Notes under the pieces: generated by a model
Seen by the model: the letters and a program-made list of their open reading frames with translations, nothing else
Databases searched by the model: none
What the model was told of the DNA's origin: nothing
Shown: piece after piece, positions 30,784 to 40,621 of the stretch
Layout of the letters: every line of letters starts with the position of its first letter
How positions within the stretch are numbered: position 1 is the stretch's first letter
Source: Minisyncoccia bacterium
Lineage (GTDB): Bacteria > Patescibacteriota > Minisyncoccia > Phycocordibacterales > UBA9973
Assembly (NCBI GenBank): GCA_049303835.1
Contig: JBAQNN010000003.1
Span: forward strand, 114,820 to 178,819
DNA: 64,000 nucleotides
Direction: 5' to 3'
Made by a program: the position numbers and the translations under genes

Positions 30784-30835
30784 GCCCTATCGTCTAATCA
30801 AATAGAATATAGTGGGCATCAGCTTTTCAAGCTGG
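30784..30835 (+). pseudogene. degenerate 5' fragment of tRNA-Glu (acceptor, disrupted D-arm and intact anticodon arm; no T-arm)
   Basis: ggccctatcgtctaat plus a 17-nt insertion plus catcagcttttcaagctgg, identical to the intact tRNA-Glu(UUC) 40 nt downstream apart from the D-loop insertion. Confidence 0.65.
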
Positions 30836-30873
30836 AATTTATAGAGAGAAAAAGTGAGTAAATTAAATAGGTT

Positions 30874-30945
30874 GGCCCTATCGTCTAATAGTTAGGACAT
30901 CAGCTTTTCAAGCTGGTAATCTGGGTGCGATTCCCAGTAGGGTCA
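30874..30945 (+). tRNA. tRNA-Glu (anticodon UUC)
   Basis: Hand fold: acceptor ggcccta/tagggtc, anticodon stem tcagc/gctgg, loop ttTTCaa; its 3' 46 nt are overlapped by the C-terminus of the serine recombinase gene. Confidence 0.8.
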
Positions 30946-32603
30946 CAAATAGGTAAAAGTCGGTTTTGTAAGGCACGAAAGCCATTTTTACATTTATACT
31001 CAAGGGTATTTCCAGAAAACTTGAGTTCGGAAAACACTGCACGCATTATTATCTCTTTCTTCTTGGAATTGCCAATATAGTAATGTAAATAGGCATCTTT
31101 TAGGAGTTCGGAAAGTTTCATGATTTCTACGATAACTTCGTGTGTAGACATATCCGCTTCTTGTTCTTCTGCCTGTAAAGCGGAGAGTCCTGAGCTCAAG
31201 CGTTGCTCTTCTGCTACATACGCCTCCGGAGTATAAACACAGGCCTTTAATAATGGAATGCGGTTTTCTCTCAAATATGAAAGTTCCTCTCTGATAGTTT
31301 TCTTTCTGCGTTCGCTCTGCTCTAAAGCCGTCCTTCTTTTATATTCGATATCATTGATATCAGATTGGGTTTTGCCATCTATGTCAGAGAGTTCACCATC
31401 AGAAAAAGTTAAGCGATTAATTAATTCGCCAACTTTATCTTCCAATACCCACGCTGAAACATTCTTTCTAGTGTTAGGACAACTTTTATCACAACGAGCA
31501 CCGAGATAAATATGCTTCTTTCTGAAATATGGAGTATATACTCGTCCACATAGACCACAAGTAAAAATGCCTCGATATGACACAGAAAGTTTGTCACTAT
31601 AGTGTTTACTCGTTCGTCGTCCGCTTAACATTTCTAGAACCTTATCAGCTAGTTCCTTGGTCACAAGAGCTTCATGACTTATACTTTTCTTCCATTCGCC
31701 ATCATTGCCTCTAGTCATTCCGTAATAGAAGGGATTCTTGAATATACGTTCAACGTCTCCAGGATCAAGAGGACGACATATTTTTTCTATCACAATAACG
31801 TCTTCATCATCTTCTTCCGCTGCTATTTCTTCCGCAGTTCTACGTCTTCGCATAGGTGGCATAGTTAAACCCTGCTCATTTGCCCATTTGGTTATAGGTG
31901 TTAAAGTCCATTCACTAGTAGCGACCATTTCAAACATTTGTTTTATAATAGGTGCTCGTATTGGATCAAACGGCTTTTTATACATATCTCCTAAATTTAA
32001 ATATCCCACAGGAGCCCTATTCGTAACCACACCTTTCTCTCGTAAATTTCTAATAGTGAGTGTAACTTTCTCTCTCGTATCTCGTGAACGATGTTTTGAG
32101 AACATCCCATCTACATCTTTATGTAATTCACCGGCACTACTCTTGTCATATTTTGCAGTTACGAAACGAAAATCAATTCCTCTGTCCATTAATTCTCTGA
32201 TAATCATTTCATCTCTACTGTTTCGACAAGCACGATCCCAACTAAGGACTACCACACCCTTAAAAAATCCTTTGCTGAGAAAATACATTAGCTGTTGGAA
32301 TTTTGGGCGCTCGATAGCAAATTGAACTTGTCCATCTTTTGTAAGTGTAATAGCTTCGTTGGTTTTAAATGCTGAATGCTTTTCTGTTATCATTCCGTCA
32401 ACGCAAAAACCTTTTAGCGACACCGGTGCTATTCGCAATTTATCTCTCAAAATTAGTCTGCCAGTTTCATTTCCTTGATAAGAAATTGAATTTTGCTGAT
32501 TATCTTTATCGTCTGTGCTCTTGCGTTTGTATACCAAATAGAGGTCTCGGTATTTACCGGACTCTATTTCTTTTATAACGTTTTCAGGTAGTTCTAATTC
32601 CAT
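30900..32603 (-). CDS. large serine recombinase (phage-integrase type)
   Basis: N-terminal resolvase-like catalytic region (YKRKSTDD); recombinase domain (RAPVGY); C-terminal zinc ribbon CGLCGRV...CDKSC and coiled coil; 567 aa. Confidence 0.75.
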   Translation of the reverse strand: MELELPENVIKEIESGKYRDLYLVYKRKSTDDKDNQQNSISYQGNETGRLILRDKLRIAPVSLKGFCVDGMITEKHSAFKTNEAITLTKDGQVQFAIERPKFQQLMYFLSKGFFKGVVVLSWDRACRNSRDEMIIRELMDRGIDFRFVTAKYDKSSAGELHKDVDGMFSKHRSRDTREKVTLTIRNLREKGVVTNRAPVGYLNLGDMYKKPFDPIRAPIIKQMFEMVATSEWTLTPITKWANEQGLTMPPMRRRRTAEEIAAEEDDEDVIVIEKICRPLDPGDVERIFKNPFYYGMTRGNDGEWKKSISHEALVTKELADKVLEMLSGRRTSKHYSDKLSVSYRGIFTCGLCGRVYTPYFRKKHIYLGARCDKSCPNTRKNVSAWVLEDKVGELINRLTFSDGELSDIDGKTQSDINDIEYKRRTALEQSERRKKTIREELSYLRENRIPLLKACVYTPEAYVAEEQRLSSGLSALQAEEQEADMSTHEVIVEIMKLSELLKDAYLHYYIGNSKKKEIIMRAVFSELKFSGNTLEYKCKNGFRALQNRLLPICDPTGNRTQITSLKS

Positions 32604-40300: not shown

Positions 40301-40344
40301 CTCCATTCAGAACCCCTGTTAAATTTTGGATCTCCATTATTCAT
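37339..40344 (-). CDS. PHP-domain phosphoesterase fused to an SMC/Rad50/SbcC-like ABC ATPase with coiled-coil insertion (1001 aa)
   Basis: N-terminal PHP motifs WDLHTHTP ... GSDAHS; Walker A GRKGQGKS at about aa 330; roughly 400-aa heptad-rich coiled coil without a CxxC hook; C-terminal signature-like FSPGEKG, Walker B PLIMDQPE, H-loop IVTHNPN. Confidence 0.7.
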   Translation of the reverse strand: MNNGDPKFNRGSEWRKWDLHTHTPFTKLNNNYSNTQNSDVWIEFCEKVESADVEVFGITDYFSVENYLIFKKKFEVKYPKSEKVFFPNIELRVDRSSNNRNEGYDLHLVFDNKIDDVELENFLHNLKLENTNTNGKKLKASELKTENDFKTAFTTIPFIDEALKDTFGDKRPFFRILMAHGHGGIQPEKDNSRKNAVAEETDKRVADIYFGCDGKDREFFLNDRGKVRKKKACISGSDAHSFEDFDDKVGKKFLNDSTRHTSPTWIKADKTFEGLKQITHEPQERVFLGDKPEKLLDVESNRSRFVESVKVGHIDSKQTSGWFNSEISLNSGLVAIIGRKGQGKSALTDIVGLCGRTKIDPKDYSFLREDKFRKRGLAKGYEATMTWLDGVSITENLDAKVSATEVEKIKYLPQKYVETICNEDGVSSQFQREIDKVIFSYIPEENRLNTTNLIDLIDVKTSTIEGRVVQIRADLHSVNERLVKLEGKLYPQYLESLQNKLEGKKQELKSLIKPKTVVAPKNQLKKTDQDKLTKITDGIETISKEIETAKASIKTVNDKLNKLVKLKAAVGHITESAATIVRDFTEDAKFLSINLSELLSIKVDNKILDKAEQQLSKKKKHLEELLDQNDNPSSKSLYAKKSDLESQKEKMVNVLGEDQKKYSAYQNKIKEYEARKKEIEGKPNDLTLETIQSIETEIKYLDKKVYSDLKNELNERDLLAGNLYTELQQKSNFYKDIYRPIQRFIEVEKKTQEESGSMLEFDAGVVFDRSSFTNRFLGYINQNRDGSFQYTDKGQKVLNKITDKTDFSGPTGIKNFTQELIEHLKYDKTQNPEKESTLRSQLKGGEQENIQFYDYIFGLDYLNVKYKVLFNGKDLNSNEFSPGEKGALLLIFYLLIDKERIPLIMDQPEENLDNESIFELLVPYIRKAKLKRQIIIVTHNPNLAIVCDAEQIVAVSMNKQKNQIRYTFGSIENIEMNKKASDVLEGTLPAFDIRGNKYIRK

Positions 40345-40399
40345 GTTTATGCTCAGAGTATAGCATTTTTTGCTAAAAAAACATTATAACTAATAGGGT

Positions 40400-40621
40400 A
40401 TATTAGTTTTACACTTTCTTTATATTTCTTCCCCACAAACACTGCTAACATCAGCAGCGCCATCAATTTTTAACCGGTTATCATTAGATGAGAAGTTTAA
40501 AAAGTATAAAAACGATACAGTTACTAGATATATATATTATGGTTGCACAAAAGCACGAGGTACTGATTCTAAATGTGGATATACTGAAGAAGTAGCATTT
40601 GCTATTTTGTTGCTAATATGA
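40400..40621 (+). pseudogene. possible remnant of a second serine-recombinase zinc-ribbon region (no start codon)
   Basis: Open frame ...RLSLDEKFKKYKNDTVTRYIYYGCTKARGTDSKCGYTEE... loosely resembles the ...KKHIYLGARCDKSCPNTRK... region of the 30900..32603 recombinase; weak. Confidence 0.2.

Follow-up and report, generated by a model that had tools for sequence, protein, structure and literature searches.

An integrative element in a Minisyncoccia genome, very probably inserted at a tRNA-Glu gene by a large serine recombinase whose own gene is split in the process

Serine integrases are prized tools of genome engineering, and the control of their directionality is an active structural question. 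To our knowledge, the known members keep attP outside the integrase gene, and tRNA genes are, by the generalisation in the literature searched, not among the targets of serine integrases. The partition of an integrase gene by integration has been described for the SSV1-type (class I, "suicidal") integrases, which are tyrosine recombinases held to be exclusive to archaea, and whose genes are distributed to both ends of the element when it integrates into a tRNA gene (PMC8371274). In the myxophage Mx8 (IntP/IntX), int contains attP in the 3′ part of its coding sequence and acquires a new 3′ end upon integration, and the altered integrase is still expressed with changed properties (PMC6070905). 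Islands with the Islander signature abut an intact tRNA gene, regenerate its 3′ end and carry an adjoining integrase gene (PMC4383910).

The window analysed here is a 64,000-nucleotide stretch of a Minisyncoccia bacterium. Its positions 30947-55058 very probably constitute a single 24.1-kb integrative element, which its own large serine recombinase (LSR) placed behind the tRNA-Glu(UUC) gene of the host, at the 3′ end. The arrangement of the LSR gene is a bacterial serine-recombinase counterpart of the archaeal SSV-type integrase partition, with attP in the integrase gene and partition of that gene on integration. It differs from the SSV1 type in that the enzyme lacks the tyrosine recombinase fold and residues and is a serine recombinase; in that only the last 34 codons are lost, whereas the SSV1-type split leaves large N and C parts; and in that a single open reading frame (ORF) still encodes the catalytic and DNA-binding domains, in bacterial hosts (Patescibacteria and others). 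Mx8 Int is likewise a tyrosine recombinase and belongs to a single phage system, whereas the present arrangement extends over a whole serine-recombinase family in dozens of species. As in Islander-type islands, an intact tRNA gene stands at one end with the integrase gene beside it; however, the Islander definition does not cover the element, since the displaced tRNA fragment of 6-10 bp is too short for the signature and the integrase is of the serine rather than the tyrosine type and looks truncated. The termini and the recombinase gene comprise the following features:

30783-30835, plus strand: pseudo-tRNA-Glu, 5′ half; host side, outside the element
30874-30946, plus strand: host tRNA-Glu(UUC), B arm of attL (ARAGORN; Rfam tRNA at 30874-30945, 61 bits)
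30941-30946, plus strand: attL core GGTCAC, identical with the tRNA 3′ end; the crossover must fall in these 6 nt
30900-32603, minus strand: LSR gene, integrated form, 567 aa (Pfam Resolvase/Recombinase; PHROG integrase)
32617-32811, minus strand: 64-aa ORF directly upstream of the LSR gene, kept beside LSR homologues at a few other loci
54949-55052, minus strand: detached LSR 3′ end, 34 codons QNAWLSELLSQRNSIAISIQELSAYMQVHNNIVA plus stop; P arm of attR, on the LSR strand beside attR
55053-55058, plus strand: attR core GGTCAC, right terminus of the element
55061-55648, plus strand: host uracil-DNA glycosylase (UDG) gene, B′ flank (Pfam UDG on the identical gene)

The recombinase matches Pfam PF00239 (41 bits, cutoff 23) and PF07508 (44 bits), and weakly Zn_ribbon_recom PF13408 (17 bits against a cutoff of 25). 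Residues R27, S29, D123, R124 and R127, the serine and Arg/Asp/Arg set of a resolvase-type catalytic domain, are invariant in alignments of homologues, as are the four cysteines 349, 352, 371 and 375. The structure model places long helices over residues 402-510, and the protein has the Recombinase domain and the zinc ribbon with embedded coiled coil. A profile search against PDB sequences gave no match and only the fold search placed the protein: Foldseek returned a probability of 1.0 to the SPbeta, phiC31, LI and Bxb1 integrases, at only about 14% sequence identity to the solved structures. The domain order, catalytic, recombinase, then zinc ribbon with its coiled coil, is that of the serine integrases of temperate phages and integrative elements (phiC31, Bxb1, A118/LI, SPbeta SprA, TP901-1), with which the LSR also shares short att sites, a tiny core and a 5-bp offset of the distal motif between attP and attB. 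It departs from them in having attP inside its own coding region, in being truncated by integration and in a predicted extra C-terminal helix past the zinc-ribbon domain. The structures matched in the fold search include phiC31 and SPbeta entries of 2025-26.

ARAGORN and Rfam confirm the tRNA-Glu(UUC) that a sequence-only reading of the window had described. The convergent recombinase ORF of that reading is real as well, and it does run into the 3′ part of the tRNA, to which 47 nt of it, covering the last 15 codons with the stop, are complementary. Codons 1-554 are encoded by the element, down to position 30947, and the last 13 codons with the stop are host tRNA in antisense. The tRNA itself stays intact after integration and its body is host-specific; the hybrid C terminus of the LSR accordingly varies with the host tRNA, as a host-dependent junk tail of 13-18 residues. 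At the other end of the element, 24 kb away from the rest of the gene, minus-strand positions 55058-54949 encode the core and the detached tail, and their reading frame agrees with that of ...P I C D P T G... at attL. GGTCAC thus doubles as LSR codons C-D-(P/Q) and as the last acceptor-stem bases and discriminator of the tRNA. In this host the identity between attL and attR amounts to 10 bp, GGTCACAAAT, at 30941-30950 and 55053-55062 (plus strand), and the stretch common to the two junctions is ATTTGTGACC. The earlier reading, in which no att duplication was found, is wrong on this point. A generic repeat search over 30.5-46 kb returned AT-rich chance repeats only and no att, and an 18-mer of the tRNA 3′ end, searched with up to three mismatches, matched the two tRNA-Glu genes only and no displaced copy.

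Joining the element ends in silico yields an LSR of 588 aa, matching the form in which the tail is intact in many homologues (583-609 aa). The predicted sequence of the attP junction is GCCACGCATTTTGGTCACAAATAGGTAAAAGTCGG, and that of the attB junction is CCCAGTAGGGTCACAAATGGATAAAAATG. This reconstruction shows that attP of the predicted free element falls within the LSR coding sequence, towards its 3′ end, with the crossover inside GGTCAC, a 6-bp core in keeping with the short att sites and tiny common core of serine integrases. Since attP lies inside the gene, integration splits it, and this is why ORF and tRNA overlap. In the model of the rejoined protein, the core codons correspond to a linker of low confidence (550-554), and the tail forms a helix (555-587). 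A search for the central dinucleotide by dyad symmetry over 12 reconstructed attP sites gave a best score of 0.35 against about 0.25 expected, which is near background. Neither an excised circle nor an attP junction was seen, the junction pattern being absent from JGI metagenomes and IMG/VR, and excision is for this reason something we infer; what could be seen were the products of integration, attL and attR, and an empty attB. The rejoined 588-aa LSR was likewise absent from a collection of 15 billion proteins. As IMG/VR also held no close relative (best 22-27% identity) and no junction match, nothing in these data marks the element as a phage.

The two crossover points can be read from other contigs. 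On the left, L093 is 100% identical to window positions 30940-39093 (8.1 kb) and its upstream flank is unrelated; all 15 of its 15 mismatches to the window at 30879-30939 lie inside the tRNA-Glu body. L001 provides a third left context of the element. On the right, ten contigs found via a 193-aa protein are identical up to ...GCCACGCATTTTGGTCAC and all diverge right after GGTCAC, into at least six different host flanks; some of them share source samples with L001 and L093 as flank pairs. The element therefore occurs with 100% identical ends in at least five or six genomic backgrounds, and no contig of another host was found that spans the entire 24 kb singly. A 10-bp repeat alone would be expected many times by chance in 64 kb, and the contigs are metagenomic, so that one could ascribe the ORF/tRNA overlap and the distant tail to coincidence or to faulty assembly. 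However, attL is reproduced in independent assemblies (L001, L003, L093), as is attR (L096-L105), from several samples, and the pattern is repeated in 48 species, leaving this explanation a negligible probability.

An empty site was found as well. The sequence-only reading had suggested looking for one in related genomes, and in L107 a tRNA-Glu identical to that of the window is followed directly by AAATGGATAAAAAT..., the UDG gene, whose ATG lies 2-3 nt past the tRNA. This contig, from a related species of about 76% nucleotide identity rather than an isogenic strain, is syntenic with the window on both sides of the site (24862-30958 and 55053-57950), and of 40 positions in the predicted attB it has a different letter at 1. 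Searches for proteins identical to TrxB, to UDG and to the product of the next host gene gave too short a flank to reveal an empty site.

Between these termini lies the following cargo:

32823-40344, minus strand: variable left cargo module, from PrimPol to the TrlF-family gene; other strains carry different modules
32823-35111, minus strand: PrimPol with PriCT_1, 762 aa, with a P-loop-like GAQGSSKST (P-loop NTPase)
35130-35645, minus strand: 171-aa Pol-beta-like nucleotidyltransferase (weak Pol-beta thumb/palm matches)
within 32823-40344, minus strand: 97-aa ORF and 334-aa ORF of the left cargo module
37339-40344, minus strand: 1001-aa TrlF-family PHP-ATPase, with HTH PHP-like N-terminus and Walker A motif
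40363-40600, plus strand: internal module junction (40363) and relic of a second-lineage LSR, with a Zn-ribbon fragment at about 40490-40600
40683-54814, no single strand: right cargo (Pfam), with MarR, membrane-fusion protein, YknX-like barrel, MFS transporter, FMN reductase and HxlR, continuing with NmrA-like, TetR, AttH-like, patatin, YdjM, DUF4116 and small ORFs

The PrimPol/NTPase, Pol-beta-like and PHP-ATPase genes are present as first described, the Pol-beta matches being weak. The 1001-aa protein belongs to the TrlF-family AAA-like ATPases (NF045780, 605 bits against a cutoff of 350, residues 10-998); the Ppl family matches its C-terminus only, at 87 bits against a cutoff of 1000. Searching the literature for "TrlF" gave unrelated spectroscopy papers only.

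That an integrated element driven by a large serine recombinase sits at tRNA-Glu(UUC) had been recognised from the sequence, and the evidence above supports it. Its extent had been taken as 9.8 kb (30.8-40.6 kb), with a right boundary at 40.4-40.6 kb placed by the switch to regulator and efflux genes and by a recombinase remnant. Strains do differ at this place: in L005/L006 homology to the window resumes at 40363, and in L002/L004/L009 at about 40425-40593, the genes to the left being different ones in both groups, and GC content dips to 0.29-0.34 over 36-41 kb. However, no att-like core or LSR tail was found at 40.4 kb, and both are present at 55.05 kb, where the identical right end at 55058 meets the different host flanks, and the empty site joins tRNA-Glu to UDG. 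A 9.8-kb element is thus very unlikely. The true end is 55058, the MarR and efflux genes are cargo rather than host flank, and 40.4 kb is an internal junction at which the cargo modules of different strains diverge. The remnant is real: a 438-aa LSR occupies this position in other strains, intact in L002/L004, and the plus-strand fragment at about 40490-40600 shares 63% identity with its Zn ribbon along 38 aa. It does not mark an end but is the relic of a different LSR lineage nested in the element.

The element may itself be composite, that is, a small backbone of LSR, 193-aa gene and tail onto which islands have accreted, the PrimPol/TrlF block having been brought in or exchanged by a second, nested element of the LSR-438 type. 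In a 2.7-kb mini-element, L014, tail and LSR are only about 0.85 kb apart, and the 193-aa gene, the last gene of the right cargo in the window, is retained; the same slot holds three alternative modules; and the 438-aa LSR is intact in L002/L004 where the window has a relic. Against this stands the fact that no att sites were identified for the nested element. We give such an origin a little less than an even chance, and it is compatible with the single 24.1-kb element rather than opposed to it, since the outer ends still define what moves.

A further possibility is that a domesticated recombinase excises a chromosomal segment in a programmed manner, like XisF/SpoIVCA. XisF is the best NCBIfam match (58 bits, far under the cutoff of 375), and all that excision would re-establish is the recombinase gene and the adjacency of tRNA and UDG. 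Yet no host gene is interrupted, the 100% identical ends recur in the several backgrounds described above, and the cargo of the LSR elements is highly variable over 80 species, all of which makes a programmed rearrangement extremely unlikely and argues for a mobile element.

Homologues of the LSR show the same organisation. Their ORF ends in a convergent tRNA at 48 of 80 species-level loci (tRNA-Glu in 40 of these), and at no fewer than 17 loci the same strand carries a detached CDP.AWLSEL... tail 2.7-11 kb upstream, each time with a 6-8 bp core common to the tRNA 3′ end of that locus. The tRNA targets of the relatives include Glu, Leu, Val, Trp, Ala and Ser. In non-CPR homologues the LSR genes are intact in chromosomes, which counts against integration by gene splitting unless they stand in tandem arrays; such arrays are needed to explain these copies and find support at only a few loci (L032, L057, L072 and L077). 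L124, another contig with an intact LSR, showed no terminal overlap in a circularity check, and no tRNA.

The P arm holds a DNA motif, TGGCTTTCCGAAC, that is conserved family-wide and also encodes WLSEL. Retention of TGGCTTTC[C/A]GAA even in genomes with 58-59% GC points to constraint at the DNA level. The P-arm motif appears to resemble the reverse complement of the tRNA T-arm (GGAATCGAAC), displaced 5 bp further from the core: the CGAAC-type motif lies at +18-22 in the B arm and at +23-27 in the P arm where the target is a Glu, Leu or Trp tRNA, and the offset from the T-arm is 5 bp across all tRNA targets. This is consistent with the rule for serine integrases that the ZD motif lies 5 bp nearer the centre in attB than in attP (PMC3783163).

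We propose that the attB motif which the LSR would recognise is the universally conserved T-loop, which would explain the use of Glu, Leu, Val, Trp, Ala and Ser tRNAs by its relatives. After integration, codons 1-554 are left beside the tRNA and continue into antisense tRNA, and the last 34 codons, with the predicted C-terminal helix, lie at the far end beside the host UDG gene. The tail-less isoform probably has reduced or altered activity. Moreover, the 3′ end of the integrated LSR gene would face convergent tRNA transcription, and both effects would help to keep the element integrated as long as neither the full-length enzyme nor a directionality factor is present. The 64-aa ORF, which has no family match in the profile databases searched, is a candidate for such a regulator or directionality factor. 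It is conceivable, although we would not call it probable, that the state of integration sets the isoform, with the full 588-aa enzyme in the free element and the tail-less form with its antisense-tRNA junk tail in the integrated one.

Should synapsis or the control of directionality depend on the C-terminal helix, this arrangement would amount to a built-in directionality switch for a serine integrase, acting either as a lock pending a full-length copy or as a means of factor-independent excision. Together with T-loop recognition by the zinc ribbon, it would define a retargetable, tRNA-specific family of serine integrases that is widespread in CPR and so far undescribed. The natural removal of the helix by integration offers a ready experiment on the role of this region. 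The family contradicts both the generalisation that serine integrases do not target tRNA genes and the view that gene partition is confined to archaeal tyrosine integrases. It also provides a handle on the mobile DNA of Patescibacteria, a group whose mobile elements have been little mapped. Programs that recognise islands by a long displaced tRNA fragment or by a full-length integrase will overlook such elements or get their size wrong, as the sequence-only reading did, the LSR being truncated in appearance.

A minor feature of the host side is the pseudo-tRNA at 30783-30835. The degenerate copy of the tRNA 5′ half noted earlier is indeed there, 38 nt upstream of the tRNA, with exact blocks corresponding to tRNA positions 1-16 and 25-43 around a longer, replaced D-loop of 18 nt; Rfam does not score it as a tRNA, and it is absent from L001, which shares the tRNA and the element. 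It had been called consistent with repeated integration and excision at this tRNA. We rejected it as an att scar of the LSR, because the crossover belongs to the other end of the tRNA, within its final 6 nt, and because such fragments are about as frequent without an LSR: they lie upstream of 6 of 58 tRNAs without an LSR and of 6 of 49 LSR-occupied ones, the window included, in a scan that excludes L094, which also has such a fragment.

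The element at the 3' end of tRNA-Glu(UUC) is an insertion of 24.1 kb at 30947-55058, as established by the divergence of flanks at its right end and by an empty site in a related genome. The features at its two ends are as follows.

30635-30722, minus strand: tRNA-Ser(CGA) (ARAGORN, confirmed by Rfam)
30783-30835: partial tRNA-Glu copy, 38 nt upstream of tRNA-Glu, with exact blocks equal to tRNA positions 1-16 and 25-43
30874-30946, plus strand: tRNA-Glu(UUC) (ARAGORN, confirmed by Rfam)
30900-32603, minus strand: large serine recombinase (LSR) ORF, 567 aa, with Resolvase and Recombinase domains and a weak Zn-ribbon match; an integrase in PHROGs
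54233-54814: last gene of the element, 193-aa product

The tRNA-Glu, the overlapping recombinase, the partial tRNA copy and the accompanying gene set lie where the sequence-only reading had placed them (ARAGORN, Rfam and domain matches). The final 15 codons and stop of the LSR ORF are the reverse complement of the 3' 47 nt of tRNA-Glu. A homologue search returned hundreds of ~570-aa proteins with ~50% identity to the window LSR, most of which have C-terminal peptides such as ...CDPTGNRTRINGLKSRCPNR, which is translated antisense tRNA. The homologous protein P0001 is 99% identical to the window LSR and differs in its tail. It is encoded on contig L093, which matches window 30940-39093 with 100% identity; the 15 mismatches are all in the tRNA body (30879-30939), and upstream of the tRNA the two sequences are unrelated. 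Since the element is identical while the tRNA body and upstream flank differ, the tRNA-Glu belongs to the host, and the confinement of the mismatches to the tRNA body places the left crossover in the terminal GGGTCAC of the tRNA. From the same comparison, the host tRNA dictates the last 13-18 residues of the integrated ORF. Another contig, L001, provides a third left context of the element. A tRNA-Glu(CUC) gene at 15501-15573 also ends in GGTCAC and is unoccupied in the window; in other species it is the target of related LSRs.

The tail of the LSR family, searched for across the window, occurs once, on the LSR strand at 55058-54949. The left and right junctions, attL and attR, both contain ATTTGTGACC in the same codon phase, and joining them in silico gives a continuous ORF of 588 aa. 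On the plus strand both read GGTCACAAAT (30941-30950 and 55053-55062), a repeat that overturns the earlier statement that there was no att duplication. Ten independent contigs with the 193-aa gene match the window identically up to ...GCCACGCATTTTGGTCAC, beyond which they split into at least six different flanks, two of which share their samples with L001 and L093, the alternative left junctions. Searching JGI metagenomes with a degenerate junction pattern located L107, a related genome (~76% nucleotide identity to the window in FtsA, FtsZ and TrxB) that is syntenic with the window on both sides (24862-30958 and 55053-57950). It contains the empty tRNA-Glu site that the sequence-only reading had proposed looking for in relatives: an identical tRNA-Glu that runs straight into the start of the uracil-DNA glycosylase (UDG) gene (AAATGGATAAAAAT...), the site differing from the attB (empty host site) predicted from the window at one of 40 positions. 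The ten contigs and this empty site thus move the right boundary from 40.4-40.6 kb, as formerly estimated, to 55058. In L107 ~1.2 kb (5204-6432) separates tRNA-Ser and tRNA-Glu; the window interval is 150 nt (30723-30873). In contig L101, ~1.2 kb (1085-2352) follows the right end of the element and bears an opposite-strand ORF of 193 aa, equal in length to the product of the element's last gene. Because the UDG gene comes after it, this stretch may be what is left of an earlier element.

A scan that took one genome from each species found 80 loci encoding relatives of the LSR. At 48 of the 80 the reading frame terminates within a convergent tRNA, namely tRNA-Glu (UUC or CUC) in 40 and Leu, Val, Trp, Ala or Ser tRNAs in the rest; most of the hosts are Patescibacteria (Nomurabacteria, Paceibacteria, Saccharibacteria and others). 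The other loci belong to Bacteroidota, Alphaproteobacteria, Acidobacteriota and other groups; their LSRs are longer and have the C-terminus ...CDPT.WLSEL......I..SI..L...*, a type also found in many database homologues 583-609 aa long. At least 17 tRNA-associated loci have a detached tail, encoded on the LSR strand 2.7-11 kb upstream of the LSR, and in each of these loci attL and attR have in common a 6-8 bp core equal to the 3' acceptor end of that tRNA: GTGACC(C) for Glu, GTGGGC for Leu(CAG) and Val, and GCGGGC for Trp. Pieces of 17-19 nt from the tRNA 3' end also occur at the far side of two related elements (L028 2445-2463, L039 1773-1789), the one in L028 ~150 nt outside the true core-plus-tail site.

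The rejoined 588-aa LSR was modelled with AlphaFold2 from a 21-sequence alignment (mean pLDDT 76). The modelled domain order is catalytic, recombinase and Zn ribbon with a long coiled coil (helices 402-510), after which a short low-confidence linker (550-554) leads to a terminal helix (555-587); the att core would therefore lie in linker codons, and the detachable part would be a single helix. Foldseek matched the SPbeta, phiC31, LI and Bxb1 integrases at probability 1.0 with ~14% identity, and a sequence-profile search of the PDB found no match, so the enzyme belongs to a divergent LSR clade. Its catalytic residues are invariant in the alignments.

In attP, the site of the free element, the P arm carries TGGCTTTC[C/A]GAAC eight nt past the core. 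This motif is kept as DNA, including third codon positions, even at 58-59% GC, and the corresponding B-arm segment is the reverse complement of the T-arm (GGAATCGAAC). With the first core base as reference, the B-arm CGAAC occupies +18-22 and the P-arm CGAAC +23-27, whether the target is Glu, Leu or Trp. This is the same displacement as in the serine-integrase rule, by which the zinc-ribbon-domain (ZD) motif is shifted 5 bp outward in attP relative to attB (PMC3783163); in phiC31 structures the ZD is at attP positions 17-27. From the geometry of the site sequences we infer that the universal T-loop serves the enzyme as its attB motif, and that the enzyme's own tail codons contain a mimic of this loop. 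Symmetry scoring of the att sites singled out no central dinucleotide.

In its LSR chemistry and as a tRNA-linked island the element is ordinary. What is new for serine integrases, within the literature searched, is a gene-splitting architecture resembling that of the SSV and Mx8 integrases together with the proposed T-loop mimicry. That literature held no description of a serine integrase with an intragenic attP or of one targeting tRNA genes (either may have been reported elsewhere), and explicit published statements say the opposite, namely that serine integrases do not target tRNA genes and that gene partition is limited to archaeal tyrosine integrases.

In the chromosome, the element would encode a 567-aa enzyme (572 aa in another host) without the terminal helix, from a gene whose 3' end would face convergent transcription of the tRNA gene. 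The short form could be inactive, the element being locked until a full-length gene is supplied, a logic proposed for SSV-type 'suicidal' integrases (PMC8371274); it could retain altered activity, as reported for Mx8 after integration (PMC6070905); or the tail could be dispensable. Ongoing mobility is likely, since the element ends are 100% identical in at least 5-6 host backgrounds and 80 species have LSR ORFs free of interruptions. The element must presumably have some way of leaving the chromosome or exist as an episomal copy, and the PrimPol replicase would fit the latter. No circular form was found with the junction pattern in JGI metagenomes and IMG/VR or as a 588-aa LSR in the protein collection.

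The cargo and related features are listed here.

Left cargo, downstream of the LSR: PrimPol-PriCT with P-loop (domain matches)
35130-35645: Pol-beta-like protein, 171 aa (domain match)
Left cargo: PHP-ATPase, 1001 aa (NCBIfam TrlF family, 605 bits against a cutoff of 350)
~40490-40600: recombinase-like fragment, 63% identical over 38 aa to the Zn ribbon of a 438-aa LSR
Right cargo: MarR, membrane-fusion, MFS, FMN-reductase, HxlR, NmrA, TetR, AttH, patatin, YdjM and DUF4116 genes
L002/L004 8191-9507, plus strand: the intact 438-aa LSR in other strains

The PrimPol with NTPase, mini-PolX and PHP ATPase are present as originally named (domain and NCBIfam matches). As the insertion spans 30947-55058, the MarR-to-DUF4116 genes are cargo rather than host flank. 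To the left of the MarR gene, contigs that share it differ in gene content, with three versions: the PrimPol...TrlF block of the window; a 1154-aa protein with an N6/N4 methyltransferase and the intact 438-aa LSR (plus strand); or a NOV_C/PD-(D/E)XK block. Homology of other strains to the window restarts at 40363 or ~40425-40593, and 40363-40600 is an internal point of cargo exchange. The recombinase remnant once taken to mark the right boundary does exist, but internally; its identity to the Zn ribbon of the 438-aa LSR makes it a relic of a second, nested LSR lineage. The TrlF ATPase, a 334-aa protein and the nucleotidyltransferase look like a candidate anti-phage module, and the alternative modules (methyltransferase with large protein; NOV_C with PD-(D/E)XK nuclease) also look defence-like. 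In L014, a Nomurabacteria locus with an LSR 86% identical to the window's, the whole element is only ~2.7 kb and consists of the tail, a homologue of the 54.2-55.06 kb segment and the LSR, which defines a minimal backbone; cargo is otherwise unrelated across the 80 LSR loci. The TrlF-family ATPase (within 36320-40344) weakly resembles the Ppl and AriA defence ATPases at its C-terminus, and its neighbours are the 334-aa protein, with a faint AbiEii match, and the mini Pol-beta-type nucleotidyltransferase (35130-35645).

The degenerate copy of the tRNA 5' half was correctly recognised at first reading; its interpretation as a scar of integration and excision by this LSR is ruled out, as the crossover is at the other end of the tRNA. 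Its two exact blocks flank a longer, different D-loop, and it lies on the host side, promoter-proximal; in L001 the same promoter directly precedes the intact tRNA-Glu. Similar upstream 5' fragments accompany 6 of 49 LSR-associated tRNAs (window included) versus 6 of 58 tRNAs without an LSR at the same loci, and L094, a locus outside the scan, also has one. The altered D-arm (..TAGAATATAGTGG..) is common to the window and L017, which is from another species, with a related form in L053. In L017, L025, L053, L070, L073 and L094 the intact tRNA gene is preceded, 60-280 nt away, by a partial 5' copy, and L025 has a whole tRNA copy interrupted by two ~100-nt insertions.

Some loci have multiple orphan tails, four in L058 (3370-6145) and two in L047 (1301 and 2152), and in L032 the 3' end of a second LSR copy continues intact into the distal tail (~2580). 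The multiple orphan sites and the L032 copy suggest tandem integration and decay at the same tRNA. Further orphan core-plus-tail sites lie at L057 9623, L072 12931 and 17014, and L077 14022. At loci outside the candidate phyla radiation the LSRs are intact and are followed downstream by orphan core-plus-tail sites, beyond which several of these loci have a convergent tRNA at a distance of a few kb; the arrangements would fit successive integrations beside earlier ones that left the distal LSR copies intact.
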